Source of the DNA: Candidatus Daviesbacteria bacterium RIFCSPHIGHO2_02_FULL_36_13 | Lineage (GTDB): Bacteria > Patescibacteriota > Microgenomatia > Daviesbacterales > UBA10151 | Direction of reading: 5' to 3' | DNA length: 64,000 nucleotides | Assembly: GCA_001777015.1 (NCBI GenBank) | Contig: MFCV01000044.1 | Span: 16,786-80,785 of the forward strand | Position numbers and translations under genes: made by a program | Notes under the pieces: generated by a model | Database searches by the model: none | What the model was told of the DNA's origin: nothing | Seen by the model: the letters and a program-made list of their open reading frames with translations, nothing else | Shown: positions 2,019 through 43,839 of the stretch, in pieces | Layout of the letters: each line of letters starts with the position of its first letter | Position numbering within the stretch: position 1 is the first letter of the stretch

Positions 2019-2019
2019 T

Positions 2020-2553: not shown

Positions 2554-4146
2554 AAAATATTCCTTTTAGGACTGCTACTTCTCTCTCTTCTACTTTTTAA
2601 GAATCCATTCTCCTCAAACAATATTATTTCCAATTTAGAACCATCTCCTGATTCTATTCACTACCTAAACCCTGTGAAAAGTTTCACTGAGGGCAAAGGA
2701 CTTAATATTTCATATCAGGATAGAATAATACCTGCTCATGTCCCACCTCTTTATAGTTTAATTATCACTCCCTTTTATCTACTAACTTCCGACATAAGAT
2801 CTTTCTATTTTACTAACATTATTCTTGCTCTTATTTCCGCCATTTTATTTTTTAAAATTGTAACAGGAATTTTTAAAAGCAGAACAATTTCAATTCTTCT
2901 TTACCTATCGTTTTGCGCAAATTTAATCGTTTTTCTTTATCCATCCTTTGCCATGGCAGAAAACTTACTCATGACCCTTTATCTTTTATCAATTTGGCTG
3001 CTGATTAGACCGCCAACCCAAAAAACTGTCATTGCTTTATCATTTTTGGCAGTGGCGTTTTTTGCTACCAAATACGTGGCCTGGATTTTAAGTTTATCTT
3101 TAATTTTTATCACTTCTTTTATTGTTATTAAAAAAGCAAAGCATTTAACCTTAATATTGTTTTCATCTTTGATATGTTTTTTCTTAACCTATGTATCCAT
3201 TGAATATCTAACAAAAGGGTTAAATATCTTTGAAAGAATTACTGGTTCAATACCTGATGTATTTAGAGTATTTCAATCATTTTTCCAAACAGTTCCTAGT
3301 AATTTACCTAGGGAATTCTTTTCAAAAAATTATTTTGAAAATAACTTTATCCGCTTTTTGGGTGGTATCACAGGCGGACCTGCTGTGGTTGCAGGGGCCC
3401 ATTTTGTTATTTTACCAATTACTGTTGGGATGGTGTCTATCTTTGCAATCTTTTTAAATTTATTAAGCCCCAAAAATAGAATTCTAAGTTTTTATTTTTT
3501 TATTTCAATTTTGGCAACCATATATTACATCAGCACCTTTTTTGTAGCCGACTCCAGATACTTACTAGAATTTATTCCCGGCTTTTTAATTATCTTTGGT
3601 CTTTTTTTAGAAAGAGTCTGCAATTTTTTATACAAAATAAAAAGAGAAGTATATGCATATATTCTTTTAATCTTTTGTTGGATTTCTATTTTTTTTAACA
3701 CAACACCTGCTGTAGTAAATCAAATTAAAATTAATTTTTTTGGAACAGGAAAATCTGGAAATTACGAGGCCATCGAAACTATGAATAAATTTACCAATAA
3801 ATTGGAAGGCTCCAATAAACCAATTATTATATCTGTTTTATCGCCATATCAGATTGACTTTTTTTCAAATAAAAAATACGATTTGTTGCCCATTTCCAAA
3901 CAGCAATATTTCATCCCCAGCAGTCAAAACGTCTGGGGAATTGATTTGCAAAATTACTCTCTTTCGGACATTTATAAAGGCTTTTTAGAAAAAGGGAGAA
4001 GGGTTTATGTTTCAAATTATTTAACAGGGGAAAAATATTGGTATAAATTTGACCTTTTAAAAATTAAAGAAAACTTTAATCTAATATCTGTTTTTGACGG
4101 ATGCAGTAATCAATGCTCTGTCTATGAACTTAAACTCAAAAATTAG
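2548..4146 (+). CDS. Polytopic integral membrane protein with a C-terminal soluble domain; possibly a GT-C-type (ArnT/PMT-like) glycosyltransferase or pilus-associated membrane protein
   Basis: 532 aa with more than 10 predicted hydrophobic helices followed by a ~150 aa soluble tail. It sits between the pilin genes and pilD. The family assignment is a guess from architecture only. Confidence 0.35.
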   Translation: MQKIFLLGLLLLSLLLFKNPFSSNNIISNLEPSPDSIHYLNPVKSFTEGKGLNISYQDRIIPAHVPPLYSLIITPFYLLTSDIRSFYFTNIILALISAILFFKIVTGIFKSRTISILLYLSFCANLIVFLYPSFAMAENLLMTLYLLSIWLLIRPPTQKTVIALSFLAVAFFATKYVAWILSLSLIFITSFIVIKKAKHLTLILFSSLICFFLTYVSIEYLTKGLNIFERITGSIPDVFRVFQSFFQTVPSNLPREFFSKNYFENNFIRFLGGITGGPAVVAGAHFVILPITVGMVSIFAIFLNLLSPKNRILSFYFFISILATIYYISTFFVADSRYLLEFIPGFLIIFGLFLERVCNFLYKIKREVYAYILLIFCWISIFFNTTPAVVNQIKINFFGTGKSGNYEAIETMNKFTNKLEGSNKPIIISVLSPYQIDFFSNKKYDLLPISKQQYFIPSSQNVWGIDLQNYSLSDIYKGFLEKGRRVYVSNYLTGEKYWYKFDLLKIKENFNLISVFDGCSNQCSVYELKLKN

Positions 4147-4888
4147 GAAAACGTAAATACCAGTTTAAAATATTAGTTCCCCAAAAAAGGGAGATTAAAC
4201 TAGCTAAAACTAAAAATGGACCAAATGGAATTACCTGACCAAACTTTTTCTTTTTTAAAATTATTAAGGCAACTGCAAAAATAGCTCCTGAAAAGAAAGA
4301 GAGCATAAGAGCCAGAATTCCATTTGGAAATCCCAGCCCAAGTCCTAAAAACATTCCCAACTTAACATCTCCGCCTCCCATGCCTTTGCCGCGGGTTATA
4401 ATTATTAAAATCAGAAAAAATCCTGCTATTACAAGTCCTGTTAGAAGAGAATCTAAAAAGTAATTATCAAAAATCATAAGATAAATAAGAGAAATTCCAA
4501 TTGATGGCAAGATTATAGAATCCGGAATAAGCATTTCTTTTAAATCTGTTAAGAAAATAATCCCTAAAATTGTTATGAAAAAGACATGAAAAATTAGACT
4601 TGGGGAAATTATTGGATTTAGGAAAAATAGCAGTCCTGTTAAAATTCCCATCCCAATTTCTACTAAAGGATACTCTATGCCAATTCTACTTTTGCAATAT
4701 CTACATTTCCCACCCAAAACAAAATAAGAAAGGATGGGTATAAGATCAAACCAAACCAGGGATTTTTTACACTTAGGACAATACGACCGCCCAGAAAAAG
4801 TTTCTTCTCTTAGGCTCCTATCAGCAAGAGCCTTAACAAGACTTCCTAAAATTGTACCTATCAAAAATCCAAAAAAGGCTGGAATCAT
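4136..4888 (-). CDS. pilD: Prepilin peptidase (A24 family, PilD)
   Basis: N-terminal CPKC...CRYC zinc-binding tetracysteine motif, polytopic membrane body, and the conserved GGGDVKL-like region. Lies next to pilC/pilT/pilB. Confidence 0.85.
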   Translation of the reverse strand: MIPAFFGFLIGTILGSLVKALADRSLREETFSGRSYCPKCKKSLVWFDLIPILSYFVLGGKCRYCKSRIGIEYPLVEIGMGILTGLLFFLNPIISPSLIFHVFFITILGIIFLTDLKEMLIPDSIILPSIGISLIYLMIFDNYFLDSLLTGLVIAGFFLILIIITRGKGMGGGDVKLGMFLGLGLGFPNGILALMLSFFSGAIFAVALIILKKKKFGQVIPFGPFLVLASLISLFWGTNILNWYLRFPNF

Positions 4889-6088
4889 TTATATTGATGT
4901 AGTGAGCTGATATATTGGCAATAGAATTGAGATTGCCAAAAATGCCACTCCCAGTCCTAAAACAACAAATATCAAAGGTTCTATAGCCACAGTTAAATTT
5001 TTAACCAGGTGATCTGATTCTGATTCAAAATATTGAGCCAGTTTAAAAAATATTTCATCAACTTTACCTGTTTCTTCTCCAACTTTAACCATTTGGCTAA
5101 CTATTTTTGGAAAATTTTCTTGAGTTAGAAGTAAAGATAAAGGCAGTCCTTTTTCAACTCCAGCATAAGCATCTTTTAAAGCACTTTTAAAAACTTTATT
5201 TTCAGTTAAAGAAGAGACTATGGCAATTGATTCCAAAAGGGGAATGCCAGCAGATATTAAAAGTCCAAAGGTTCTGGTGAAGTTTGTCAAAATTACAGAG
5301 GTGATTATTTTTCCAATAATAGGCAATTTTAAAAGCAGTTTTGAGACAAAATAACTTCCTTCTTCTGTTTTCATCCACTTATTTAAAGAAAGTCTTCCTG
5401 CAGTAATGATTATTAATCCTACCCACCAAAAGTTAATAAACAAGTTGGAAGAACCTATTAGAATTTTTGTTGGGAGAGGTAAGTCAATCGCTGATTCCTT
5501 ATATAAATCGGTTAATTTCGGGATAACAAATACCATCATAATAATAATGACCACTATCATAAGAGCGATAATAACCATAGGATAAATCATTGCTCCTTTT
5601 ATCCTGGCCTGAAATTCTCTTTCTTTTTCTAAATTATCCGCCATTTGAGTTAGCACCTGATCCAGCTTTCCTGATTCTTCACCGCTTTTAACTAAATTTA
5701 CATAAAGATTTGGGAAAATCTGAGGGTGCTTTCCTAAAGCTTGTGCCAGAGCCAATCCTCCTTTAACATCCTGGGAAATTTCAGATAAAGCCTTTTTTAA
5801 AACTTTATTTGTCTGTTGTTCTTCTAAGATATCTATAGCCTCTGATAAAACTAAACCACTGGAAATCATTGTAGCTAGTTGTCTTGTGATAACAACTAAG
5901 GTTGAAAAATTAATCCCGCTTGTAAATTTGGCTAGAAATCTGTTTATTGCTGGTTCTTTGTTATCAACTGAAATAACAATCAATCCTTTTTTTCTTAAGG
6001 TTGTTACAGCTGAGTGTGCATCATTGGCTTCAATAGTGCCTTTTTTTTCTTCACCATCAGGACTTTTAGCTAGGTATTTAAATTCCAT
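4889..6088 (-). CDS. pilC: Type IV pilus assembly platform protein PilC (GspF family)
   Basis: 399 aa with two repeated GspF-like domains and three TM segments (for example GKLDQVLTQMADNLEKE and GKVDEIFFKLAQYFESE repeats). Confidence 0.85.
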   Translation of the reverse strand: MEFKYLAKSPDGEEKKGTIEANDAHSAVTTLRKKGLIVISVDNKEPAINRFLAKFTSGINFSTLVVITRQLATMISSGLVLSEAIDILEEQQTNKVLKKALSEISQDVKGGLALAQALGKHPQIFPNLYVNLVKSGEESGKLDQVLTQMADNLEKEREFQARIKGAMIYPMVIIALMIVVIIIMMVFVIPKLTDLYKESAIDLPLPTKILIGSSNLFINFWWVGLIIITAGRLSLNKWMKTEEGSYFVSKLLLKLPIIGKIITSVILTNFTRTFGLLISAGIPLLESIAIVSSLTENKVFKSALKDAYAGVEKGLPLSLLLTQENFPKIVSQMVKVGEETGKVDEIFFKLAQYFESESDHLVKNLTVAIEPLIFVVLGLGVAFLAISILLPIYQLTTSI

Positions 6089-6089
6089 A

Positions 6090-7142
6090 TCATTCCACCA
6101 ATTTATTCAGAAGTTCGGGTCGGAGAGTATATTTTAGAGCCACTTCCTGAGAAATTTGTCCTGTTTTAATTAACTCAGCTAAAGACTTTTCTAAAAGCTG
6201 CATTCCAAAACCAGCTGAGGTTTCTATCATATTATCTAAAAGATAAGTTTTCTTTTCCCGGATGACATTTCTAACAGCAGGAGTTGCAAATAAAATTTCC
6301 GATGCTAAAATTCTGCCTGGTTGAATAGTTGGTATAAGTCTAAGAGATAAAATAGCTTCTAAAGTTGATGCTAACTGAAGCCTAATTTGAGGCTGCTGCT
6401 CCTCTGGAAATACATCAATAATACGGTCAATTGACTGAGCGGCAGAATTTGTATGAAGAGTAGCAAAAACTAGATGGCCAGTCTCTGCAATAGTCATGGC
6501 TGAAGAAATTGTTTCAAAATCACGCATTTCACCAACCAAAACAACATCCGGATCTTCCCTTAACACTGCCCTTAAAGCATTATTCCAGGACCTTGTATCC
6601 TTATACATTTCTCTTTGTTCAATCAAAGATTTTCCTTTGGGGTATACATACTCAATAGGATCCTCAACTGTCACAACATGTACAGCTCTTTCCTGATTAA
6701 TTTTATCAATAAATGAAGCTAAGACTGTAGATTTTCCATGACCTGTCGGACCTGTCACTAAAACAAATCCCTGCTTAATTTCTGTTAATTTAGTAACCAC
6801 TTCAGGAAGACCTAAACTTTTTAAAGGCGGGATGGCAAATGGAATTAATCTTAAAGAGGCTGCACTATGACCTTTTTGTCTGTAAATATTAGCTCTAAAT
6901 CTGGCCTTACCTTCATAATCAAAAGAAAAATCTACTTCATAATTTTGATTATAAATGTTTTTTTGAATTTCAGAGAGGAGGGGAAAGATTAAACTTTCTA
7001 CCTGTTCCTGAGTGGAGGGAACTTCCCCTGGGACAGGTATAAGATCTCCATGAATACGCAAAATTGGAGGAAATCCAACTGAAATATGTAAATCAGAAGC
7101 ATTTCTTTGGACTGTTAGTTCTAATAATTGTTGTATGTTCAT
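6090..7142 (-). CDS. pilT: Twitching motility retraction ATPase PilT
   Basis: Walker A GPTGHGKST, Asp box, and a PilT-type C-terminal region. Its 350 aa length is typical of PilT. Confidence 0.85.
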   Translation of the reverse strand: MNIQQLLELTVQRNASDLHISVGFPPILRIHGDLIPVPGEVPSTQEQVESLIFPLLSEIQKNIYNQNYEVDFSFDYEGKARFRANIYRQKGHSAASLRLIPFAIPPLKSLGLPEVVTKLTEIKQGFVLVTGPTGHGKSTVLASFIDKINQERAVHVVTVEDPIEYVYPKGKSLIEQREMYKDTRSWNNALRAVLREDPDVVLVGEMRDFETISSAMTIAETGHLVFATLHTNSAAQSIDRIIDVFPEEQQPQIRLQLASTLEAILSLRLIPTIQPGRILASEILFATPAVRNVIREKKTYLLDNMIETSAGFGMQLLEKSLAELIKTGQISQEVALKYTLRPELLNKLVE

Positions 7143-7197
7143 AATTTTGTTCCTTCAAAATTTCAAGGTCCTGTGATGAGCAGGTTCTTATATAATC

Positions 7198-8916
7198 TTA
7201 ATCCTGTGCCACCCTTAGAACTTCTTCCATTGTTGTAACCCCCTCTAGCACTTTTAAATATCCATCCTGCTTCATTGTAATCATGCCAGAAGCCACTGCT
7301 GAAGCTTCTATATCTCCGCTTGATGCATGCTCCATCACCAGTTTTGTAATAGCATCTGTCATAATTAAAACCTCAAAAATTCCAATTCTTCCTAGATAGC
7401 CTGTATTGGCGCAAAACTTACATCCCTGTCCTTTATATAGTTTAAGAATGGCACTCTGATTGGCGGGTATAAAGTTTTTCAATACAGCTTTTATATTTTC
7501 TGTAACTTCAGGAGAGGCATTAAATTCCACCCTGCAGTGAGCACAAATTTTTCTTACCACTCTTTGAGCTAGAGCAGCATATAAAGAAGATGCTAAAAGA
7601 AATGGTTCAACTCCCATATCCAAAAGCCTGGGTGGAGCACCTGCAGCAGAATTTGTATGGAGAGTAGAAAAAACCTGATGACCTGTAAGAGCTGCCTGTA
7701 TGGCTAAATCTGCAGTTTCTGTATCACGAATTTCTCCTACAAATATAATATTCGGATCCTGTCTTAAAAAGGATCTTAAAGCAGATGCAAAAGTTAGTCC
7801 AACAGCAGCATTAACTTGCACCTGGTTTACCCCTGGAATCTGATATTCAACAGGATCCTCAATTGTGACAACATTAACCTTAGTGGTAGAAATTTTGGAA
7901 AGAACAGAATAAAGAGTAGTTGTTTTACCAGATCCTGTGGGGCCGCATACTAAAATAATACCGTGTGTTCTAAGCATTTGAGACTCTAGGGATTTAAATT
8001 GGGCACCTCTTAATCCCAGTTCTAAAAGAGTTGGGGCAGATGTGGATTTAGGCAAAAGTCTCATAACTACTTTTTCTCCATGCACTGTAGGGATAGTGGA
8101 CACACGTAAATCTACAGATTCTGAACCGGAAGTAAATGTAAAACGCCCATCCTGAGGAAGTCTTTTTTCATCTATTTTTAGGGTAGATAAAATCTTAATT
8201 CTGGAAACTAAAGCATCATGAACCCCTTTTGGCAGCAAGATCTTTTCCTGCAAAATCCCATCTATTCTGTATCTGACCCTGGTTCTATTTTCCTGAGGCT
8301 CAATATGAATATCGGAAGCACGGACTTTGACAGCATATTCCAAAAGCTCATTTATAATATTAGATACAGGAGCTTCTCTTACAACCTCAGGTCCAGCAGC
8401 TACCGCTTCTTCCGGCTTAACTGCCTGAACCTCTCTTAATGCAGAGGTAACCTCTGAAGTTAAATTTTGTGAATACTGATCATTAATTGCTTTTATAATA
8501 TCTTCAGGCAAAGCCAAATACGGCCTTACCCTAAGCCCTGATCTTTTCTCAATAAATTGGATAATTTGAATATCTAAAGGATCTTCCATAGCCACCCAAA
8601 GCTCATCACCTGTTTTCTCAAAAGGGATAGTTTTATAGCGGCGGGCGGCTGGCTCAGGAACCAAACTTAAAATATCAGCAGCTATTGCCTTACCTTCCAG
8701 TTTTATAAAAGGAACATTTAAAATTTGAGCTTTGGCTTGAGTAATTTTATCCTGGGGGACTAAATTATGCTGCAGTATCAGTTGATCAATTGTTGTTCCT
8801 GAATTTAAGCTTTCCTGCTTTAAAGCTGAAATTTGATCCCCGGTTAAAAGACCTTGTTTAGAAAGAATCTCTTCAATTGTATCGCCACTTGGAGCAGAAG
8901 CCGTGGTTTTGGGCAT
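7198..8916 (-). CDS. pilB: Type IV pilus assembly ATPase PilB (GspE family)
   Basis: Walker A GPTGSGKTTTLY and a C-terminal tetracysteine CAHC...CKFC. 572 aa with N-terminal GspE_N-like domains. Confidence 0.85.
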   Translation of the reverse strand: MPKTTASAPSGDTIEEILSKQGLLTGDQISALKQESLNSGTTIDQLILQHNLVPQDKITQAKAQILNVPFIKLEGKAIAADILSLVPEPAARRYKTIPFEKTGDELWVAMEDPLDIQIIQFIEKRSGLRVRPYLALPEDIIKAINDQYSQNLTSEVTSALREVQAVKPEEAVAAGPEVVREAPVSNIINELLEYAVKVRASDIHIEPQENRTRVRYRIDGILQEKILLPKGVHDALVSRIKILSTLKIDEKRLPQDGRFTFTSGSESVDLRVSTIPTVHGEKVVMRLLPKSTSAPTLLELGLRGAQFKSLESQMLRTHGIILVCGPTGSGKTTTLYSVLSKISTTKVNVVTIEDPVEYQIPGVNQVQVNAAVGLTFASALRSFLRQDPNIIFVGEIRDTETADLAIQAALTGHQVFSTLHTNSAAGAPPRLLDMGVEPFLLASSLYAALAQRVVRKICAHCRVEFNASPEVTENIKAVLKNFIPANQSAILKLYKGQGCKFCANTGYLGRIGIFEVLIMTDAITKLVMEHASSGDIEASAVASGMITMKQDGYLKVLEGVTTMEEVLRVAQD

Positions 8917-30697: not shown

Positions 30698-31411
30698 TTA
30701 CAAAAGTGCTAGTCCCAATATCCCAAGTATTGTTAAGATTGATCCAATAATTGCCAAAGTAAATGTAAGTTCTGTTGCTCCTGTATCTTCTCCCTTTCCA
30801 ACAATATCATCAATGGTTGGAGCAGTTACTGCTCCTGAAGCAGTTGATGTGTTTACACCCGGCTTTGGAGTAGTGGATGTAGTAGCTGCAGCACAAGTTG
30901 TACCTGAACCAATTGTATAATTACCATTCACAACAGAGCTTAAGACATCAGCAACCGTACCTCTTTCTACAACATTAGAATCAGTAGTATTAGTTTTATC
31001 ATTCGCATTAAAATCAAACTTCATTTGAGATACACCCGGTCCTGCATTTTCTTTAACAGTAAAATTAACTGTAGCCAAAGTACCCTTACCGGTAAAAGGA
31101 GAGGAAACAGAAGCCAACCCGGAAACTGTTAATTTTCCTGTAGTATCATCTATATTATTTCCAGGGTAATCAGGATATATTGAACCTGAAGAAATAGAAG
31201 TGGCTGAAAATTTGCTTTGGTCATAGGTCACAATGGCATCTGTTCCATCAGTTTGAGCACTGCCCGTATCAAGCACAATCTGTAAAGAAAAATTACATCC
31301 CTTATTAAAAGTACCTGAGGCAGGGGACAGAGAAAGGGAAGCAGCTAAGACAGCAGCTGGGCTAACTAACAACCAATAACTAACAACCAATAACTGAATT
31401 ATTCTTTTCAT
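30698..31411 (-). CDS. Secreted surface protein with a signal peptide and a C-terminal hydrophobic anchor (cohesin/Ig-like beta domain?)
   Basis: N-terminal signal MKRIIQLLVVSYWLLVSPAAVLA and a C-terminal ILTILGILGLALL helix. The signal-peptide region carries a 14-bp tandem duplication. Confidence 0.5.
   Translation of the reverse strand: MKRIIQLLVVSYWLLVSPAAVLAASLSLSPASGTFNKGCNFSLQIVLDTGSAQTDGTDAIVTYDQSKFSATSISSGSIYPDYPGNNIDDTTGKLTVSGLASVSSPFTGKGTLATVNFTVKENAGPGVSQMKFDFNANDKTNTTDSNVVERGTVADVLSSVVNGNYTIGSGTTCAAATTSTTPKPGVNTSTASGAVTAPTIDDIVGKGEDTGATELTFTLAIIGSILTILGILGLALL
31366..31393. repeat. 14-bp tandem duplication (CTAACAACCAATAA x2) within the signal-peptide codons of the 30698-31411 surface protein gene
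   Basis: Read directly from the sequence. The unit length is not a multiple of 3. Confidence 0.85.
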
Positions 31412-32064
31412 GGTGTTATTTCAATATTTACATCTTTAGTTTTCTTAAGAATATCAACCCCTTCAGATGACACAAGATTTGAATCCCTGCTGTCACCCTC
31501 CTTATATTCTATGGTAACACTTTCTACTCCTACTGCTTTGGCAGTGAATGATATAGTTGCCATATTGGAATCTCCCTTAAAATTTTGTCCCTCAGCTACA
31601 CCTGAAATCCGAATTATTCCCTCCTTTGAATCTACTTCTACTAAAGGATAGGCTGAAAAAGCCAAACCTGTTTGAATATCAGTGTTAGTCAATGATAATA
31701 ATTTAGGATTGTATTTTAATATGACATCTCCTCCCAAAACTTCATGTCCGCCTGTTGAAATATTTACAGAAACTGTAACTTTTTGCCCTATTTTTATAGA
31801 AGTTGAGGAGGCTGAAAGACTAATAGATCCATCTGTCAAGGACTCCCCAACAATTGCCTGTTCTGGAGTAACCTGGGTAGGGGAGGAGTCTTTCATCAGT
31901 GTACTTATTCCAAAAACTATCTCAATTAAAATGATTGCTCCCAATACTCCAAATATTACTTTAGGATTTAAATATTTAGTAATATTAGGATTACTTTTTT
32001 GTTCTACTCTTTCTGTAACAATTGTCTTTAAATTTGGATCCATAATTTCATAGTAACATATCAA
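31408..32064 (-). CDS. Hypothetical N-terminally anchored exported protein
   Basis: One N-terminal TM (VIFGVLGAIILIEIVFGI) followed by a beta-rich Ser/Thr-rich domain. Confidence 0.45.
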   Translation of the reverse strand: MICYYEIMDPNLKTIVTERVEQKSNPNITKYLNPKVIFGVLGAIILIEIVFGISTLMKDSSPTQVTPEQAIVGESLTDGSISLSASSTSIKIGQKVTVSVNISTGGHEVLGGDVILKYNPKLLSLTNTDIQTGLAFSAYPLVEVDSKEGIIRISGVAEGQNFKGDSNMATISFTAKAVGVESVTIEYKEGDSRDSNLVSSEGVDILKKTKDVNIEITP

Positions 32065-33752
32065 ATACTGCTAACTGAAGCAGATGGGACGGCTGTAGCA
32101 GATGGAGCAACAGAAGTTTGAACTGGTTTGGAGATAGGGCCAGCAGTTGGTTCAGCATCATCTGAAGCTCCAAAATCAAATCTCATACAAGCCCAGTCAA
32201 AAGAGTTAACCAACCCATCATCATTGAAATCTCCTGGCTTATCACCTCCTGATCCAACAATTCTCCACTCACGGAGTAATTCTGATGCATCAGCTGAATT
32301 AATTTTGCCGTCCCCGCCATCCAAAGGAAAGATGTCCCCAACAGGCAATTTTACATTTGAAAGAATAGTTGTTCCGCGACCTGCATTAAACTCAATGACT
32401 TTTCTAACACTCTTAGGAGCCTCTAAACTTACTTTATAGCCTTGTCCTTCTACCAGCTTGGTATTAGTCATACCTTGCACTAAGCCCTTCTTATCTATAG
32501 AAACTGTAGATCTTACAATCTGACCCTTATCTTTTCCTTCAGCCAATATTAAGCTGACAGCATTGACTACAGAAGTTTGAGGTGCACGGCAGAAAAGTTT
32601 AGTTCCCAAAGATAGCTGAGATAGGGAAGAGCAGCTTCCTTCAACAGATAGTCCTTTTTTATCAGTTATTTTGATCTGGAATACCTGATCAGTAGGCTGA
32701 CCGGAAAGTACAGCTATAATACGTCCATCATCCCATCTTTCTAATTTTAAGGTTTGTAAATTAACATCTCCCATTTCAACTTTTCCGGTTTCTGCTCCAA
32801 ATCCATTTCCAACTCCAGCTTTGGGTAGAATCTCAAAAGTAACTCTGTCTGCTTTTGAGGTATCAACACTACATGAAGCAATGGATGGAACTGAGATAAG
32901 TTCAATGGTGGCACTGCAAGCCTGGGTTTGGTTGGTGCCGCATCCGCCCCACTTACCAGCGATATCCTTAAACATGACAAACACAAAATTAGCCCCAATC
33001 TTTGGATTTTGGAAAGTATAAGAGGTTATAAGATTGCCGCTTGCATCAACTGTATATGGCAATTCAGGAGCCAAATTTAATCCTTCAACTGTCTCAGAAA
33101 TTTTATAGGAAACAGTACTTAGCCCAGGTGGTGTAGATTGTCTGGTAACTGTGACTCTGGCAATTACTGTCTGATGCGAGGTTCCCTGATATAGCTTAAA
33201 CTCATAACTACTTCCTGGTTCAATCCAGGGAGCAACTTCGGAACCACTTGGATTTTGCCAAACCGGTCCAATGTCCGAAGCTCCGTCAATTGATACATAT
33301 ACTTGTCCTGCTGAACCATCACCGGTATTCCAGGTAATAGTGGTTGAACTATTAGTTGTAGGGTTAGGAGCTGCAGAAATTTTGTTGGTAGTGGAACCTC
33401 CTGTAACAGTTACACTTACTGAGTGAAGTTTGCTGGAACCTGAACATAAATCAAAAATATAACCCTGGGCATCTATCCAATTGGCTGTATATGTGCCGGT
33501 TGGTACACTAGCAGGATTTACTCCTGTACAATCAGCTTCTCCAGACCTATGGGCACGTACTGATACATTAGAGGCATTAGAGGTAGACCAGGTAATTATT
33601 GTTCCACAGTGAGTGGCACCAGCTCCACCAATTCCTAAGATACAGGGATTAGGGGAGGCAGTAATTGTACCCGTTGCAGCAGCATATACAGGAGTTACAA
33701 GTGTTATTAAAAAACTTATATAAACAAACAAACTTAAAAATATTTTTTTCAT
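32061..33752 (-). CDS. Large secreted multi-domain surface protein with a C-terminal dockerin-like Ca-binding module
   Basis: Signal peptide MKKIFLSLFVYISFLITLVTPVYA, repeated Cys-containing beta domains, and C-terminal DGGDGKINSADASELL...DFNDDGLVNSFDW resembling the dockerin duplicated F-hand. The N-terminal domain is paralogous to the upstream gene. Confidence 0.55.
   Translation of the reverse strand: MKKIFLSLFVYISFLITLVTPVYAAATGTITASPNPCILGIGGAGATHCGTIITWSTSNASNVSVRAHRSGEADCTGVNPASVPTGTYTANWIDAQGYIFDLCSGSSKLHSVSVTVTGGSTTNKISAAPNPTTNSSTTITWNTGDGSAGQVYVSIDGASDIGPVWQNPSGSEVAPWIEPGSSYEFKLYQGTSHQTVIARVTVTRQSTPPGLSTVSYKISETVEGLNLAPELPYTVDASGNLITSYTFQNPKIGANFVFVMFKDIAGKWGGCGTNQTQACSATIELISVPSIASCSVDTSKADRVTFEILPKAGVGNGFGAETGKVEMGDVNLQTLKLERWDDGRIIAVLSGQPTDQVFQIKITDKKGLSVEGSCSSLSQLSLGTKLFCRAPQTSVVNAVSLILAEGKDKGQIVRSTVSIDKKGLVQGMTNTKLVEGQGYKVSLEAPKSVRKVIEFNAGRGTTILSNVKLPVGDIFPLDGGDGKINSADASELLREWRIVGSGGDKPGDFNDDGLVNSFDWACMRFDFGASDDAEPTAGPISKPVQTSVAPSATAVPSASVSSI
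33138..33220. repeat. 83-bp segment identical to 33757-33839 (direct repeat shared by the two adjacent paralogous surface-protein genes)
   Basis: TTGTCTGGTAACTGTGACTCTGGCAATTACTGTCTGATGCGAGGTTCCCTGATATAGCTTAAACTCATAACTACTTCCTGG occurs at both sites. The flanking sequence is only about 75% identical. Confidence 0.85.
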
Positions 33753-33753
33753 A

Positions 33754-34644
33754 TTATTGTCTGGTAACTGTGACTCTGGCAATTACTGTCTGATGCGAGG
33801 TTCCCTGATATAGCTTAAACTCATAACTACTTCCTGGATTAATCCAAGGTGCAACCTCAGTACCAGTTTTATTTTGCCAAACCAGGAAATCTGTAGCTCC
33901 ATCAATAGATACATATACTTGTCCATCACCTTTAGCATCCCAAGTAATAGTGGTTGAACCATTAGTTGTTGGGTTAGGGGAGGCAGAAATAGTACCAGTA
34001 GTACTACCAGAACCACCACCAGAAGCTACGCCTTGAACAAATACCTTTGCAAGATGTGTATTACCTACACAAAGATGAAACCAGTAGCCGATAGCATCTA
34101 TCCAATTGGCTGATTGCGGACCATTAGTAGCGTTCCAAACTAAACCTCCAGTACAAACATCGGCATCATTTCTGTCATACTTTACATCAGCAGTTCCAGT
34201 ATTTGTAGTAGACCAGTTAATAGTGGCTTTGCAGTGAGTTTCATCAGCCCCACCTCCAACAGTTCCTAAGGTACAAGTAGAGGCAGTAATGGTACCAGTA
34301 GCAGTTCCAGGAGCTGTTGTTGGAGCAGTGGTTGGTGCAGTTGTTGGAGCAGTAGTGGGAGCTGGAATAAGTCCAAAAGGGGAGACAAGTTGTAATCCTA
34401 CTTTAGGATTGCCGTCTTTATCTAAAGTAAAGTACTTTGTTCCATCTGTTTTATCCTTAACATTTTCTCCTGTAAATGTAATTGGAGGAGCAGCAGCTCT
34501 GGATCTAAAAATTTGCTGTTTTTGAACAAGGGAAATTATTAAAGGTAGAGCGGTAATTATTATGCCCATCCCCAGCAGGGAAATTATGTTCCTTTTATTG
34601 CTAAAAAAACTACGTAGTTCGTCCATGGATGGATATATATCCAT
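33754..34644 (-). CDS. Secreted surface protein paralog with an (APTT)n Pro/Thr linker
   Basis: N-terminal TM/signal, linker APTTAPTTAPTTAPTTAPG, and two domains homologous to the N-terminal domains of the 32061-33752 protein. Confidence 0.55.
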   Translation of the reverse strand: MDIYPSMDELRSFFSNKRNIISLLGMGIIITALPLIISLVQKQQIFRSRAAAPPITFTGENVKDKTDGTKYFTLDKDGNPKVGLQLVSPFGLIPAPTTAPTTAPTTAPTTAPGTATGTITASTCTLGTVGGGADETHCKATINWSTTNTGTADVKYDRNDADVCTGGLVWNATNGPQSANWIDAIGYWFHLCVGNTHLAKVFVQGVASGGGSGSTTGTISASPNPTTNGSTTITWDAKGDGQVYVSIDGATDFLVWQNKTGTEVAPWINPGSSYEFKLYQGTSHQTVIARVTVTRQ

Positions 34645-34717: not shown

Positions 34718-35257
34718 TTGCTTGATTCTTTTAGACTTGATATAATCAATCCTATGGCAGAACAATTAACTCAACTTGCTCAAGTATTTCTTAAAACTAA
34801 ACCCTCAGAGATTAAACCTCTTTATGAAAGTCCTACATGCACTGAATTGGAAAGAAATTTTAAAAGATTGCTTCTGGGCGGATTTCCTAATTTCAGGAAG
34901 TATCTACTTTGGCTGGAAACAAAATCTGGTCATAAACCTCTGGAGTTTTACCAAGGACCGGTTTGGGGTCTTCCAAAATGGACTTGTGGATCACCTCCTG
35001 ATGTTTACCAAACCGGACTTGTAAAAAACCCTTCTAATACAATAGTGGGTCACTCTGCAATAGGTCCCAGAAACGCAATTGTGGAAGTAAATGGCATCCT
35101 TTTTGCGGCTCTGGCTGATTTTGGAGGATTTGAGGTTACCAGACCTATCAGGGTTCCTTATAATGAAGAACTAAAACAGCCATTCCATGCATTACTTGCA
35201 GAAGTCACCCAACCTCTTCCCTTAGTAGAAAGCTTAAAGCCATATTTCCCATATTAG
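34718..35257 (+). CDS. Hypothetical protein
   Basis: 179 aa ORF; no family recognised. Confidence 0.4.
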   Translation: MLDSFRLDIINPMAEQLTQLAQVFLKTKPSEIKPLYESPTCTELERNFKRLLLGGFPNFRKYLLWLETKSGHKPLEFYQGPVWGLPKWTCGSPPDVYQTGLVKNPSNTIVGHSAIGPRNAIVEVNGILFAALADFGGFEVTRPIRVPYNEELKQPFHALLAEVTQPLPLVESLKPYFPY

Positions 35258-35499
35258 AGGATTAATATTGTACGACGTCGGAAACATATCTTAAAAATCC
35301 CTAAAAAATCTTCCTTATATATATAAACAAACTCCTGGCAAATTATAAAATAAAATTCTTTTAAAGGAAAAATAAAACTTCTAAGGGATGGCAGAATCAC
35401 AAGTAAATTAAAAACACCGCAGTCCAATGCAATCAAAGCAATTAAGAAGATTTTTGTGTAGATATTAATCAAAAATCTTCTCATAATGAGGCTTGAGAA

Positions 35500-36330
35500 T
35501 ATCTCTATGATTCAGTAATACTAGCCGAATGGTGCTTTGTGCATGGACAAGGTGTCTAATAAGACCATTTGTGCCTAGCCAGGCACGAGCCTCTACAATG
35601 CCCTAAAAACGGCTTGCCAGGGGACATAAGCACTAACTGGTCATCCAGAGTTTAGGGCTCTAGGAAGCCCTGAACTAGATGCTAGATATTAGAAACTAGA
35701 CGCTAGAAAAACAAACAAAAAATCAGTTGGGAATACAAAGAAATAGGCACAAATAAATGCAGTATAAAATCTGCTGGTTTAGCCATTAATTTAGCTCTAA
35801 GTTAGCCTTAGGTGCACTCCTCCAGTAACCACTTCCAGATCGTCGCATAAGATACATTGTGCGACATTAGGCGTATAGGGAAGTTCACCCTAGTAGAGAA
35901 TATACCGATGACTTAATAAATGTACAAGAGAACATAAAACACCTTTGTCTTCTGAATGATTCCTATTAAGATGCTTGTTCGGGAGGCACTCTCCTCCAAG
36001 AAGGGCTTCGTTAGGTTTCGGGAAACCTACGTCCTGTATTTTTCACGCTATTTAGCAATTATATACATCCCTTGCCAGAAGTGAGCGTGATAGATCTTAT
36101 GGTGATCAAGTTATTGATCACCTCAAGGCTTGCAGTGCACGAGCGTCAGCGAGAGCACGAAAGACTTATAGTTTTCCACATTCATGCCTGCCAACTACAT
36201 CATTCTATATCATTTCCCGCATGAGTACAGTATAACCCCATAGTTTTCACGGTTTCCTACTACTCTTTTCACACTCCTCCACTCTTGTCGTAGTTTGGAT
36301 TATTAAATCAAGCTAAACTCTCTCTTTTAG
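35500..36330. ncRNA. ORF-free, GC-richer, hairpin-dense ~830-bp region; candidate structured non-coding RNA(s) of unknown class
   Basis: No ORF of 60 aa or more on any frame in a genome that is otherwise more than 90% coding. Visibly higher GC than the flanks. Multiple perfect hairpins, for example GGTGATCAAGTTATTGATCACC and AGGTTTCGGGAAACCT. The class (RNase P, tmRNA or other) could not be assigned by eye. Confidence 0.25.
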
Positions 36331-37109
36331 CCTGTCCAGGAGGTTGTTATCAGGCTAATAAGCAATACTACTGCCCCTATTCCTAAATACTCCCATACTA
36401 CCCTTTTTGTGGCTTTACCCCTTAAAACCTGTGTTGTTAAGCCTAAAAGTACATACATTGATGAAGAAAGAGATAAGGGCCAAATAGTTGTCAGCATAGG
36501 CCAGAAGGAAAAGGCTAACCCTAACTCCCCTAATATTAAACTTATGATAAAACTTTGAATTATGGTGGCTTGAGAAATTTTATCCTCCATTTCTAGGCTC
36601 CAAAGAACCTGCAGTGTTAGAGGAAAACTGACTAAGAAGACCAATACCCCATTCCATATAAATAAAAGATTAAAGGCATAAATAACATTATATAGAAAAA
36701 AGGCTGAAAGAAGAGTAAAAAGAAAGCTGGCAGTTGAGGCAGCCCTGTATAGAGGAATTGTTCTTATTGAGGCTACATTAAATACATTTTGAGCAAGTAA
36801 AAGAAGGTAAAAAGTCAGCCCAAATATAAAAGCCACAGGCAGTCTTGTTAGCCACCTAACTGGCAATAAAAAGTAAAAGCTGGAAACAGCCACTGTGAAA
36901 AAAGCAGGCAGAATCATTAAGACCAGAGCTTTGGTTTTGCTTAATCCCTCCCAGAGAGACCAAAGAGATAAAAGATAGGCTAAAACCCCCAAACCTCCAA
37001 TAAACCTAAACCTTAAATTAAAATCCACCATTTGGGTTGATAAAAGCCCCATGGTAAGAATTAAGGAGGTAATAATAATTTTTTGACGTTTGTTTAAGTT
37101 TAAATTCAT
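36327..37109 (-). CDS. Hypothetical polytopic membrane protein
   Basis: 260 aa with about 7 hydrophobic helices. Confidence 0.45.
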   Translation of the reverse strand: MNLNLNKRQKIIITSLILTMGLLSTQMVDFNLRFRFIGGLGVLAYLLSLWSLWEGLSKTKALVLMILPAFFTVAVSSFYFLLPVRWLTRLPVAFIFGLTFYLLLLAQNVFNVASIRTIPLYRAASTASFLFTLLSAFFLYNVIYAFNLLFIWNGVLVFLVSFPLTLQVLWSLEMEDKISQATIIQSFIISLILGELGLAFSFWPMLTTIWPLSLSSSMYVLLGLTTQVLRGKATKRVVWEYLGIGAVVLLISLITTSWTG

Positions 37110-38473: not shown

Positions 38474-38560
38474 GGCAGATATTTTAGCACATATTATTCC
38501 CCTAATATTGTACGAAACATTGACAAAGCATCCCTCTTCTCACTATACTTTGACACTTAG

Positions 38561-41204: not shown

Positions 41205-42350
41205 CTATAGTTTTAGGTTAGGAAGGTTATTAGAAATAATAGCCTTCCTGATTTTTTTGACTAAATTGGTTACAAAATAAATGTTGTGATAAGTGGCAAG
41301 TTCGTGGTATAAAATCTCCCCTGATAAATATAAATGTCTAAGATAGGCTCTGGAAAAGTTTTGACAAGTGTAACAGCTACATTGAGGATCAATTGGTTTC
41401 TTATCTGCCTTATATTTAGATTGTCCAATGCTGAGTGTTTGGTTATTAGAAACATACAATGATCCAAATCTAGCTCTTCTGGTAGGAGCCACACAATCAA
41501 ACATATCAACTCCCCTTTTTATGCCTTCTATTAAATCTTCTATCTCCCCTATCCCCAAAAGATGCCTTATTTTATTCTCACTAACCTGCGGCAAAGTATA
41601 ATCAATCATCTGGTACATTTGTTTTTTAGTTCCATAAATTCCCCCCAAAGCAATGGCTTCAAAATTTTGATCTGTAAACTTGGCAGATCTAATCCTAAGT
41701 TTCTTATTAGTACCACCATGGACAACCCCATACATTAATTGTTTGGAATCCAATTTTTTAAAAGCAGCTAAAGACCTTTTAGCCCATCCTTCTGTCCTTT
41801 CAATAGATTCCAAAAGATGTTTTGCGTCATCTCTATATTCATGGTCATCAAAAGCCACTGTTAAATCTGCACCCAAATGCAATTGTAACTCCATAGATTT
41901 TTCTGGAGTTAAGATATGAGTTGATCCATCTAAGTGGGATTGAAAAGTGACTCCCTCCTCAGTAATTTTGTTTAACTTAGGTCTTGGTGATTCTTTAACT
42001 TTTCCATTTTTTGAGCTCACAACTTTACTGGATCCTTCTTCCATCCCCCCACCTAATGAGAATACCTGGAAGCCCCCTGAATCAGTCATAATCGGCCTGT
42101 CCCACCCCATAAACTTATGTAGGCCACCAAAGCTCTTTATCACCTTAACCCCTGGTCTGAGCATTAGATGATAAGTATTAGCCAAAACCATCTGAACACC
42201 TATTTCGTTCAAGTCTTTTGGAGACATAGCTTTAACTGTAGCTTGAGTACCAACTGGGTTAAAATTAGGAGTCTCAATAACTCCATGAGGAGTTTCCAAA
42301 AGCCCTACCCTTGCTTTCCCATCTTTATGTAAAATTTTGAAATTACTCAT
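41205..42350 (-). CDS. tgt: Queuine tRNA-ribosyltransferase
   Basis: N-terminal HKDGKARVGLLETPHGVIETPNFNPVGTQATVKAM (Tgt signature) and a C-terminal Zn site CxCxxC...H (CSCYTCQNFSRAYLRH). Confidence 0.85.
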   Translation of the reverse strand: MSNFKILHKDGKARVGLLETPHGVIETPNFNPVGTQATVKAMSPKDLNEIGVQMVLANTYHLMLRPGVKVIKSFGGLHKFMGWDRPIMTDSGGFQVFSLGGGMEEGSSKVVSSKNGKVKESPRPKLNKITEEGVTFQSHLDGSTHILTPEKSMELQLHLGADLTVAFDDHEYRDDAKHLLESIERTEGWAKRSLAAFKKLDSKQLMYGVVHGGTNKKLRIRSAKFTDQNFEAIALGGIYGTKKQMYQMIDYTLPQVSENKIRHLLGIGEIEDLIEGIKRGVDMFDCVAPTRRARFGSLYVSNNQTLSIGQSKYKADKKPIDPQCSCYTCQNFSRAYLRHLYLSGEILYHELATYHNIYFVTNLVKKIRKAIISNNLPNLKL

Positions 42351-42368: not shown

Positions 42369-43424
42369 CTAGCTTCCGTCCTTCCACAACCAAACTTGAT
42401 TTTTAAGTTGTTGAGTTAATTTAAAGCTATTAGCATGACCTAAAAAGCCTAAGTATGACTGTAGAGATTGATTAAAAGTATCTGAGTTTATTTTTGTTTG
42501 TAGTTTCTTAAACATTCTCTTTCTTGTCCTGGTTCTGGGTAAAATATAATGAGGCAATATGACATACCCTAAAAAATCAATTCCTTGAGTATATTTTCTT
42601 ATCTTAATTTTGTTAGGATGCAAGGATAGTTCAAGACCATTTTTTAGAAATTCTTCTATCCTAGGTATTAAGTTCTCCAAATAATCCTTATCCCTTGATA
42701 AAACTACAAAATCATCTGCATAACGCACGTAGTATTTAACCCTTAACTTATGCTTCATAAACTGGTCAAGTTCATTCATGTAAATATTGGCAAAAATTTG
42801 GCTAGTCAGATTGCCAATTGGGATACTTTTTTCTTCAGAAAAGCTTTTTAGAATATTTTCTAAAAGCCAAATTAAGTCCTTATCGTATATCTTTTTTCTA
42901 ATAAGACTTAACAAAATATTGTGGTCAACACTTGCAAAAAACTTCCTTATATCAAGCTTTAAACAATAACATTCCCCCTTATAATTGTTACTAACTTTTC
43001 TAATAAAAACGTTTAATCTTTTAACTGCTCTATGAGTTCCTTTATTTACCCTACAGGAATATGAATCATAAATAAAACTTTTATCAAAAAGCGGTTCAAT
43101 TGCAGACACTATGGCGTGATGAACTATCCTATCTTCAACTGTAGCCTTATGAATATTGCGGAATTTAGGATCATAAATGTTAAATGCCATATAATAAGCA
43201 TGCATATAAGTTTTTGTTTTTAAGTTCTCAAATAAATTAAAAAGATTATCTTCTAAGTTCTTTTCGAAAATTTGTACATCTTTCCTTCGCCTCTTACCCA
43301 CTTTAAATCCATTCCAGGCTTGAAATAGGCTCTCAATTGATATAAGATTCGAATAATCGAATCTTGCGACTTTGTCTAAAGATCCCATTTCCTCTGCCTT
43401 TTCAAATATTTTAGAATTTTCCAT
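42369..43424 (-). CDS. Diversity-generating retroelement (DGR) reverse transcriptase
   Basis: RT motifs 1-7 including YVRYADDFVV and the DGR-specific motif-4 signature IGNLTSQ (PIGNLTSQIFANIYMNELD). About 350 aa with no maturase/endonuclease domain. Lies next to a TR/VR pair. The longer ORF start (MGISKLYAVCVCVCV) is an artefact of the (CA)11 repeat; the real start is taken as MENSKIF. Confidence 0.8.
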   Translation of the reverse strand: MENSKIFEKAEEMGSLDKVARFDYSNLISIESLFQAWNGFKVGKRRRKDVQIFEKNLEDNLFNLFENLKTKTYMHAYYMAFNIYDPKFRNIHKATVEDRIVHHAIVSAIEPLFDKSFIYDSYSCRVNKGTHRAVKRLNVFIRKVSNNYKGECYCLKLDIRKFFASVDHNILLSLIRKKIYDKDLIWLLENILKSFSEEKSIPIGNLTSQIFANIYMNELDQFMKHKLRVKYYVRYADDFVVLSRDKDYLENLIPRIEEFLKNGLELSLHPNKIKIRKYTQGIDFLGYVILPHYILPRTRTRKRMFKKLQTKINSDTFNQSLQSYLGFLGHANSFKLTQQLKNQVWLWKDGS

Positions 43425-43472
43425 ATGGATACAAATAAACAAAGTTTGCCAGATAAATCTAGTAAAGATATT

Positions 43473-43494
43473 CACACACACACACACACACACA
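43473..43494. repeat. (CA)11 dinucleotide microsatellite in the divergent region between the DGR RT and avd
   Basis: cacacacacacacacacacaca read directly from the sequence. Confidence 0.9.
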
Positions 43495-43500
43495 GCATAT

Positions 43501-43839
43501 AGTTTTGATATTCCCATTTTTCAAAAACTATATGATTTCTATTTGCTCTTATACCAAAGCTTAAAACTTTTTCCCAAAAAGGATCGTTTTACTCTTGGAC
43601 AGAAGATAGACAATCTTGCTTTAATAATTTTTGAGCAGGTTTTTGCAGCAGGAACAACTACACCAGATAGGAAATTACCTATACTAGAAAAATCTATTGC
43701 CTCTTTAGATCTTCTTAAGATACTAGTAAGGCTAGCCAAAGATATACAAGCTCTAGATAATAAAAAATATCTCCAGCTAGAGCAAGCCCTGCAAGAAATA
43801 GGCAGAATGCTTGGTGGCTGGAGAAAATCTTTAAAATGA
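43501..43839 (+). CDS. avd: DGR accessory variability determinant (Avd)-like four-helix-bundle protein; start codon unresolved
   Basis: LYDFYLLLYQSLKLFPKKDRFTLGQKIDNLALIIFEQV and the following helices match the Avd/23S-IVS four-helix-bundle pattern (FPKxERFxLxxQ). There is no in-frame ATG: candidates are ATT 43510, TTG 43543, or the long TTG ORF from 43372. It is on the strand opposite the RT and target. Confidence 0.5.
   Translation, partial: SFDIPIFQKLYDFYLLLYQSLKLFPKKDRFTLGQKIDNLALIIFEQVFAAGTTTPDRKLPILEKSIASLDLLKILVRLAKDIQALDNKKYLQLEQALQEIGRMLGGWRKSLK

Follow-up and report, generated by a model that had tools for sequence, protein, structure and literature searches.

The subject of this report is a non-coding element in a 64-kb stretch of the genome of Candidatus Daviesbacteria bacterium RIFCSPHIGHO2_02_FULL_36_13 (contig MFCV01000044.1), here referred to as the window. 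The element lies in a gap of 1069 nucleotides (nt) without open reading frames (ORFs), which is the largest non-coding gap of the window, the others measuring about 0.5 kb or less. The genes on either side are convergent: an ORF of 179 amino acids (aa) that belongs to no family ends at the gap from the left, and a gene for a DUF5656 membrane protein, the final gene of a yebC-ruvC-DUF5656 block, ends at it from the right (Table 1).

A first-pass annotation had flagged positions 35500 to 36330 as an ORF-free, GC-enriched and hairpin-dense island and a candidate large structured non-coding RNA (ncRNA). The island proved to be ORF-free over a wider interval than claimed. Within the flagged positions the longest ORFs have 42 and 50 aa, with none of 60 aa or more, and a 76-aa ORF on the minus strand (35254-35484) falls in non-conserved AT-rich DNA. 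The GC enrichment is only modest, as the GC content of 0.40 to 0.42 is above that of the AT-rich 300 nt to the left (0.32 to 0.33) but not above that of nearby coding windows, which reach 0.43 to 0.46 (2-kb windows across the whole stretch mostly have 0.32 to 0.39). All four stem-loops that had been listed, and the direct repeats AACTAGATGCTAGA and AACTAGACGCTAGA, are present. When 33 related species were compared, just two of the four hairpins, GTGCC/GGCAC and GTCGCA/TGCGAC, overlapped conserved blocks, and the other two and the CTAGA repeats were located in lineage-specific insertions or in a variable linker.

Table 1. Features of the non-coding gap and the nearest recombinase gene (window coordinates)
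Feature	Position	Strand	Remarks
Xer-family tyrosine recombinase gene, type 1, 306 aa	29710-30630	-	4.6 kb left of the element; assigned by Pfam families
Whole ORF-free gap	35258-36326	.	Flanked by the 179-aa ORF (34718-35257, +) and the DUF5656 gene (36327-37109, -)
Core copy A, ATATTGTACGACG	35265-35277	+	Counterpart, always in the same orientation, in 23/34 species
AT-rich non-conserved spacer	35278-35567	.	Inverted repeat at 35445-35481; GC 0.32-0.33; nhmmer alignments begin at ~35562
Domain 1, conserved 112-nt block	35568-35679	+	Candidate hairpins H1, P2, P3 and P4; structural support weak
Candidate hairpin H1 (GTGCC/GGCAC)	35571-35586		In domain 1
Candidate hairpin P2	35591-35622		In domain 1
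Near-invariant P2 loop, CTAAAAAC	35603-35610
Candidate hairpin P4	35649-35676		In domain 1
Direct repeats AACTAGATGCTAGA / AACTAGACGCTAGA	35673-35707	.	Variable linker; unrelated species-specific short repeats there in relatives
Pyrimidine boxes GCACTCCTCC and CCACTTCC	35814-35823 and 35829-35836	+	Kept in relatives as CCACTTCTCC / GGTCTCCTCC
Imperfect 11-6-11 palindrome TCGTCGCATAA-GATACA-TTGTGCGACAT	35840-35867	+	Right arm is core copy B (35854-35867)
Hairpin GTCGCA/TGCGAC	35842-35865
Near-invariant box TATAGGGAAG	35874-35883	+	4-7 nt past the core
Block D: pyrimidine box CTCTCCTCC, then CTTCG...GTATT	35989-36047	+	Followed by TTTTTCACG (36040-36048)
Hairpin AGGTTT/AAACCT	36013-36028
Block E: TTAGCAATTATATACATCCCTTGCCAG	36051-36078	+	9-mer degenerate here (TTATATACA); perfect TTATCCACA there in many relatives
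Lineage-specific insertion with perfect hairpin GGTGATCAA-GTTA-TTGATCACC	36079-36160	.	Hairpin at 36101-36123; absent or different in most relatives
Block F: TATAGTTTTCCACATTC...CAACTACATCATTCTATATCAT	36166-36213	+	Perfect DnaA-box 9-mer TTTTCCACA at 36172-36180
Block G: two direct TTTTCAC repeats	36244-36273	+	Starting at 36244 and 36266, 22 nt apart
Block H: pyrimidine box CTCCTCCACTC, imperfect hairpin, T-rich tail	36275-36326	+	Hairpin at ~36291-36318; tail abuts the DUF5656 stop codon

Conservation of the element

A scan of species-level genomes with the DUF5656 protein gave 34 relatives at 61 to 80% amino acid identity, mostly named Candidatus Daviesbacteria or Microgenomates; where individual loci are meant, they are given by handles such as L016. 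A homologous ORF-free stretch is located directly 3' of the DUF5656 gene in 33 of the 34 species, and in nearly all relatives it measures 0.65 to 1.0 kb. The conserved part, which blastn and nhmmer aligned in discrete blocks (E values of 1e-35 to 1e-9 for the first 31 loci), spans about 750 nt, from ~35562/35568 to ~36320 in the window, and the initial ~300 nt of the gap are not conserved between species. A covariance model of the best-conserved block, domain 1, found exactly one match in each of 61 sources, with scores of 33 to 113 bits and 86.9 bits for the window. The gap sequence is 100% identical in 7 to 10 independent groundwater contigs, on which the DUF5656 protein is also identical; part of these contigs come from PRJNA268031, and some of the samples we take to be from the Rifle aquifer.

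A metagenome scan with a domain-1 pattern returned 73 matches, 33 of them true homologues that all stand in the DUF5656 context. For the remaining 40 there was no match to domain 1, element or protein, and they were taken as chance. Mobility of domain 1 was rejected, as the scan places it in the DUF5656 context only. A protein search for more distant DUF5656 homologues listed only Daviesbacteria proteins of 75 to 85% identity. Because the 33 contigs share the DUF5656 context and each source has a single domain-1 match, the element is real, single-copy, syntenic and lineage-specific; it is under purifying selection and always directly 3' of yebC-ruvC-DUF5656. The first-pass annotation had named junk or a pseudogene as the alternative should there be no transcription and no conservation in relatives, and the element is neither, since it is conserved and syntenic in Daviesbacteria. 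The strongest argument against a chance assembly of motifs is this conservation, not folding. The genomes of the Candidate Phyla Radiation (CPR) are tiny and densely coding, so a conserved non-coding locus of 0.75 kb is costly and presumably important.

Searches for known RNAs agreed with the failure of the first-pass annotation to recognize canonical RNase P, tmRNA or group II domain V motifs by eye. Against Rfam 15, whose families include RNase P, tmRNA, SRP, 6S, group I and II introns, OLE, GOLLD, ROOL, HEARO and raiA, a cmscan of the whole window at the gathering threshold returned a tRNA-Leu only, and in E-value mode positions 35200 to 36400 gave only chance-level matches of at most 21 bits. 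There were no Rfam matches in 14 relatives and none in L035 in E-value mode, and ARAGORN detected neither a tRNA nor a tmRNA in the element or at any of 34 related loci. Resemblances to RNase P and tmRNA seen by eye were short and out of order and were rejected. The description of the interval as a lineage-specific non-coding element with no match to a known housekeeping RNA was thus upheld by Rfam, ARAGORN and the relatives. A hidden protein gene or pseudogene was likewise rejected: six-frame stop-to-stop peptides revealed no ORF with conserved ends, the indels of the element are not multiples of three, and the peptides cluster only by virtue of shared DNA blocks, which recur in all six frames. 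Literature searches on CPR and Patescibacteria ncRNA, oriC and LexA motifs yielded nothing that applies to the element. No description of it was found in Rfam or the searchable literature.

Conserved blocks and core repeats

What is conserved is a series of short sequence blocks, three pyrimidine boxes among them, with fixed spacing, variable spacers and a single polarity. To judge from the sequence, this pattern would resemble arrays of protein-binding sites on DNA. A core of 12 to 13 nt, ATATTGTnCGACA(T/A), occurs in two copies with the same orientation, and ATTGTNCGAC has only two occurrences in the 64 kb, both in the gap and on the plus strand, where 0.11 would be expected by chance. Nearly all species conserve copy B, which is the palindrome's right arm. 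By the left arm the species fall into two classes: in class I (the window and 10 relatives; 11/34) it is present, and in class II (23/34) there is no palindrome at copy B and a recombinase gene, xer2, is adjacent. Copy A of class II species lies just past xer2 or past xer2 and a following ORF, orf180. A third near-copy of the core, AATATTGTACGA, was noticed at 38504-38515 on the plus strand between yebC and a TPR gene. A TTGACA-N18-TATACT promoter follows directly downstream, and in relatives no such copy was found there. A role of the 12-mer as a general promoter motif was rejected, as it is element-specific in the window and has no -35 hexamer at 16 to 18 nt.

With two 11-bp arms, an imperfect dyad and a 6-bp centre, positions 35840 to 35867 have the architecture of a dif site; in related genomes the right arm alone is conserved. 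By our own count 8 of 11 positions are complementary in the window, which is below the threshold of the palindrome scan, and the equivalent sites in L013, L016 and L042-L044 have 9 to 10 of 11. A search for inverted repeats in the window gave 9-nt arms (35842-35850 and 35857-35865) with 89% complementarity. The 28-mer agrees at 19 of 28 positions with the H. influenzae dif sequence, and such scores arise by chance in coding DNA too.

To the right of the palindrome, block D is split by an inserted hairpin (36011-36029); of the 18 alignment rows shown, those of the window, L013 and L014 alone have it. The two TTTTCAC repeats of block G are 22 nt apart in 43 of 51 sequences and 21 to 23 nt apart in all 51, with a variable spacer sequence. 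A perfect TTWTNCACA is present at least once on the plus strand in every species, and such 9-mers occur at 1.85 per kb in the element as opposed to 0.08 per kb in the flanks. There are 1 to 2 perfect and 2 to 5 one-mismatch DnaA boxes per element, all on one strand, and in most species TTATCCACA lies ~92 nt or TTTTCCACA ~48 nt upstream of the TTTTCAC pair. Near the DUF5656 stop codon, block H of relatives includes AT-rich short tandem repeats, which are short in the window.

Recombinase genes and the break in synteny

Synteny breaks at the element: the gene on its far side differs between species, and an Xer-family recombinase gene is located beside or near it in at least 24 species. Two types, which are paralogues with ~31% identity, were found. 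The type-1 gene (306-311 aa) lies within 5 kb of the element in the window, L016, L029 and L040, and the type-2 gene, xer2 (331-343 aa), directly adjoins it in ~20 species, with a promoter (TTGACA-N17/18-TATTAT) that abuts the element. Both types align over their full length to the XerC, XerD and XerA models of NCBIfam with scores below the equivalog cut-offs (236, 233 and 213 bits, respectively, for type 1). The suggestion of a decayed mobile element in the first-pass annotation was therefore only partly apt, in that the element is tied to tyrosine recombinases and to a synteny break and is not decayed.

In class II, the two core copies bracket domain 1 and xer2, in part together with an ORF of 178 to 180 aa; in the window they bracket only 35278-35853, without a recombinase gene inside. 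In L026 the repeat is 19 nt long, and L036 has three copies, which suggests tandem accretion. In this the element is like the attachment (att) hot spots of integrases at tRNA, tmRNA and other conserved non-coding genes: it stands at a synteny break, a tyrosine recombinase gene adjoins it, direct repeats of 13 to 19 nt flank the recombinase module of class II relatives, and one species has an extra copy. Unlike such hot spots, it is without a tRNA, a tmRNA or an Rfam RNA, and the recombinases are Xer-like and lack an arm-binding domain. The crossover segment is often not identical in both repeats, since one core position differs between the copies, and no unoccupied site was seen; domain 1, which is inside the repeats, is present in all 61 sources searched and conserved even where there is no recombinase gene.

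Several further features of this variable side were recorded. The type-2 gene starts within an 8-6-8 palindrome, GAGTATAA-TCAACC-TTATACTC, in L011 (6147-6176), L031 (6603-6632), L037 (6692-6721) and L041 (6645-6674); it overlaps the TATAAT box downstream of TTGACA, and other species have a different palindrome there. This second palindrome was rejected as a dif site because its inner positions are variable and it extends over the -10 box and the initial codons. The 178- to 180-aa protein encoded after the type-2 gene (L031, 7633-8175; orthologues in L019, L024, L026, L035, L036 and L039) has no match in Pfam, NCBIfam or PHROG. In the window, ORFs with cohesin domains and dockerin-like ORFs occupy the variable zone between the recombinase gene and the element (30698-33782, minus strand), and at the equivalent position relatives encode cohesin and TIG-domain proteins. 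Many metagenome contigs end in or just left of the element (among them L079, at the start of a near-genome-size contig of 794 kb, L084, L114, L106, L085 and L076), which suggests strain-variable or repeated DNA on that side.

The promoters at the element bear on one further explanation, that it is an extended regulatory region, comprising a long 3' untranslated region of the yebC-ruvC-DUF5656 operon and operators for xer2 and for the gene past copy A, with the 12-mer as a transcription factor site. The abutting xer2 promoter would agree with this, as would the finding that in many relatives copy A has an opposite-strand TTGACA hexamer 10 to 13 nt away, and the near-identical 12-mer upstream of the promoter between yebC and the TPR gene. 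However, both flanking genes of the window end at the element, so that there is no promoter to serve; in no species does a gene start within 300 nt of blocks D to H; and the yebC-side 12-mer is not seen in relatives. We therefore regard this explanation as very unlikely.

Evidence for and against a structured RNA

The plus strand of the window folds more stably than shuffled sequences (z = -3.4; 20 shuffles), and the minus strand does not (z = -0.9). Across 12 genomes, the left half of the element is unremarkable (mean z = -0.7 and -0.3 for the plus and minus strands, respectively), and the right half is moderately stable on both strands alike (-2.1 and -2.0). RNAalifold, applied to a 61-row alignment of domain 1, yielded essentially no consensus structure, with 3 pairs and -1.06 kcal/mol. 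We also built by hand a model of domain 1 with four hairpins, H1, P2, P3 and P4, and scored it on 58 distinct sequences. In this model 69.9% of the cells pair, compared to 67.2% in column shuffles, and many pairs are broken in 30 to 60% of the sequences; its covariation score of 0.155 is above the 0.123 of shuffled alignments and was reached in 0 of 500 shuffles. With the partners slid by one column (+1), 56.8% of the cells still pair and the score is 0.121. P2, which includes a conserved G-U pair, favours the plus strand (48 G-U cells versus 15 A-C cells), but H1 and P4 do not, and overall there is no agreement on a strand. In P4, two pairs (columns 109/129 and 110/128) alternate between GC, UA and UG. 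An exhaustive search for long-range helices in alignments of 33 and 53 sequences returned matches of purine tracts with pyrimidine tracts in competing registers, which were rejected, and also the short hairpins P7 and P8, which enclose DnaA-box-like 9-mers. The stem of P7 varies (TTAGCA/TGCTAA, CTAGCA/TGCCAG and TCAGCA/TGCTGG) and has an A-C mismatch in 27 sequences, which is half of them, and P8 is almost invariant.

Signals for transcription were sparse. No sigma-70-like site was found at a conserved position upstream of domain 1 across the relatives, and terminator-like hairpins occur in 8 of 53 sequences in plus orientation and in 3 of 53 in minus orientation. An automated scan detected a GC-rich hairpin with a T run in plus orientation near block H in L018, and L022 has a similar one that was seen by eye only. 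A single large folded RNA is therefore poorly supported, because the fold, covariation, promoter and terminator evidence is weak and two of the hairpins and the CTAGA repeats are lineage-specific or variable; shorter or weakly structured transcripts are possible. The covariation comparison proposed with the first-pass annotation yielded weak covariation and no consensus fold. Of its interpretation, the special, lineage-specific non-coding nature of the element stands, and the large structured RNA finds little support.

A related explanation is that the element comprises one or several novel Daviesbacteria-specific ncRNAs on the plus strand, made as one ~750-nt transcript or as separate RNAs and built from local hairpins whose loops are conserved (CYAAAAAC in P2, and UUAUCCACA and UUUUCCACA displayed in P7 and P8), and that the RNA gene serves the recombinases as an anchor in the way that tRNA and tmRNA genes serve integrases. 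This would agree with the lack of ORFs and the conservation of the blocks in all reading frames, with the plus-strand fold of the window, with the G-U bias of P2 and the alternating pairs of P4 and P7, with insertions that are themselves hairpins, with the T-run hairpin of L018, and with an integrase gene that adjoins a conserved non-coding locus at a synteny break. Against it are the RNAalifold result, the broken pairs of the model, the mismatch in P7 and the near-invariance of P8, the unremarkable or strand-equal folds of the 12 genomes, the small number of terminators, and the lack of a conserved promoter and of an Rfam match. We consider it possible but rather doubtful. It is of note that the RNA and DNA explanations are not exclusive, since a conserved RNA gene could be the anchor of the recombinases. 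In a combined form, a Daviesbacteria-wide ncRNA gene or dual RNA/DNA element of ~0.5 to 0.75 kb would present single-stranded motifs (the DnaA-box-like 9-mers in loops and the invariant CYAAAAAC loop) and double as an Xer anchor for the exchange of variable surface-protein islands, which seems to us unlikely.

When set beside large RNAs such as OLE, GOLLD, ROOL, HEARO, raiA, RNase P and tmRNA, the element shares a size of 0.5 to 0.8 kb, restriction to a lineage, the absence of ORFs and variable insertions that bear hairpins. It differs from them in that it matches no Rfam model, has weak covariation and no consensus fold, and offers no clear strand and no conserved promoter.

A separate conserved block of ~100 nt was noticed between the xer2 promoter and domain 1 in L035 (~6480-6600, minus strand) and also in L011, L026, L030, L036 and L039. 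TATAAT precedes it, and the changes in its stems look compensatory (GTAATG/CATTAC versus GTAACG/CGTTAC; AGTG/CACT versus AGCG/CGCT). No Rfam family matches it, the window lacks it, and it makes a better small-RNA candidate than the flagged interval.

Position relative to replication

All genes in the 28 kb to the right of the element point toward it, and this side is uniformly skewed; the plus strand there is C-rich, with a GC skew of about -0.09 to -0.22 and a mostly negative GC skew at third codon positions (GC3 skew). The 35 kb to the left are mixed, with the core genes holB, gyrB, mur genes and gyrA on the plus strand and a variable patch with the recombinase gene and the cohesin and dockerin ORFs. 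Read on the DUF5656 strand, the GC3 skew amounts to +0.23 on the side of the operon and drops to ~0.00 across the element, with the lower value on the far side in 28 of 28 species. The cumulative GC skew of the window peaks at ~26 kb. Because the genes point toward the element and the plus strand is C-rich over 28 kb on its right, replication forks arrive at it.

An origin with DnaA boxes, a GC-rich box and an AT-rich unwinding element could account for the perfect DnaA-box 9-mers kept in one orientation (the TTTTTCACA variants of the second TTTTCAC repeat also fit TTWTNCACA), for the AT-rich short tandem repeats at the DUF5656 end in relatives, and for gyrB and gyrA within 25 kb. But there are just 1 to 2 perfect boxes per element, the skew has the same sign in 33 of 34 species, and the element has neither the cumulative skew minimum nor the diverging genes of an origin. 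Given that forks arrive here and that the window showed no dnaA signature, oriC is excluded; the oriC explanation is extremely unlikely. The likeness of the right-hand half to the DnaA-box and iteron arrays of oriC and theta-type plasmid origins nevertheless extends to the perfect DnaA-box consensus, to direct repeats about two helical turns (22 nt) apart, to the single polarity and to the order of a GC-rich box and AT-rich repeats. The differences are that no rep or dnaA gene is nearby, that forks arrive and that strong boxes number only 1 to 2.

Alternatively, the element could be a replication-terminus locus whose palindrome is the chromosomal dif site, resolved by the neighbouring Xer recombinase, with flanking repeats that organize or trap forks. 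Dif sites with a single adjacent Xer recombinase are known as xerS-difSL in streptococci and xerH-difH in Helicobacter. The element is like these in its 11-6-11 imperfect palindrome with ATAA and TTGT at the inner positions (...ATAA-N6-TTGT...), in the Xer gene beside or near it, in its single copy per genome and in its location in a zone of gene convergence. This zone covers 26 to 36 kb, where the core genes to the left and the minus-strand genes of 36 to 64 kb converge, and the peak of the cumulative skew and the drop of the GC3 skew across the element fit a terminus as well; a better dif candidate was not found in the window. It is unlike the two systems in that its full palindrome occurs in 11 of 34 species only, its conserved unit is ~750 nt and not ~30 nt, it has a second half-site copy in direct orientation, and its position at the terminus is putative. 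Further points against a terminus are that the skew on the far side falls to about zero without a reversal, that by our own reading the per-gene GC3 skew at 4 to 26 kb of the window is not reversed relative to the right side, and that 19 of 28 matches to dif sequences also occur by chance in coding DNA. We regard this explanation, a special case of the recombination-site idea that is supported by the convergence and the skew drop and weakened by the missing sign reversal, as quite unlikely.

A proposed composite DNA locus for recombination and protein binding

The element resembles Xer/dif sites, att hot spots and DnaA-box or iteron arrays and fails at least one defining feature of each. The best reading is that the conserved entity is not a single large folded RNA and that the locus acts mainly as DNA. 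Our specific proposal, a composite cis-acting DNA locus for recombination and protein binding at the junction of a conserved operon and variable DNA, is tentative and held with somewhat less than even confidence. The element would mark the junction between the yebC-ruvC-DUF5656 operon and a variable region with a recombinase gene. The core copies may be binding or crossover sites of Xer-type recombinases, and at copy B, which in this genome forms the dif-like 11-6-11 palindrome, DNA of the variable side might be exchanged or resolved. The right-hand array, with its one strong DnaA-box 9-mer, its pair of TTTTCAC repeats at a spacing of 22 nt, its purine and pyrimidine boxes and its AT-rich end, could load other DNA-binding proteins on one helix face, with DnaA as the obvious candidate. 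Short transcripts from the region are possible.

Several observations weigh against this proposal. The roles in binding and recombination are all assigned by resemblance, and a conserved architecture of ~750 nt far exceeds what an Xer site needs. In 23 of 34 species the palindrome lacks its left arm. Within a single genome the two core copies often disagree at the variable base n, which speaks against recent strand exchange there; the genomes examined included none with an "empty" site; and in 35 of 253 species pairs homology continues past copy A. Some helices have compensatory changes, namely the two alternating pairs of P4 and the G-U excess of P2, and the fact that several insertions are hairpins and that a few species have terminator-like hairpins on the plus strand fits an RNA better.

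If the element is a recombination and protein-loading site, it would be a first handle on chromosome resolution or remodelling in these uncultured bacteria, it could indicate where surface-protein islands are swapped (cohesin, dockerin and TIG-domain genes are on the variable side), and recombinant Xer and DnaA proteins could be tried on its concrete DNA motifs. As an RNA, the element would represent a new lineage-specific class of large RNAs.

Other features of the window

A 382-aa ORF with an RVT_1 reverse transcriptase domain (42369-43517, minus strand) is located directly upstream of a tRNA-guanine transglycosylase gene (41205-42350) and could be part of a diversity-generating retroelement or encode a retron-type reverse transcriptase. 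The element as a template repeat of such a retroelement was rejected, as its similarity to sequences elsewhere in the window does not exceed 17 nt. Lastly, positions 222 to 8916 contain a type IV pilus cluster with three pilin-like ORFs that have N-terminal methylation motifs, a prepilin peptidase, a PilC-like protein and two secretion ATPases.

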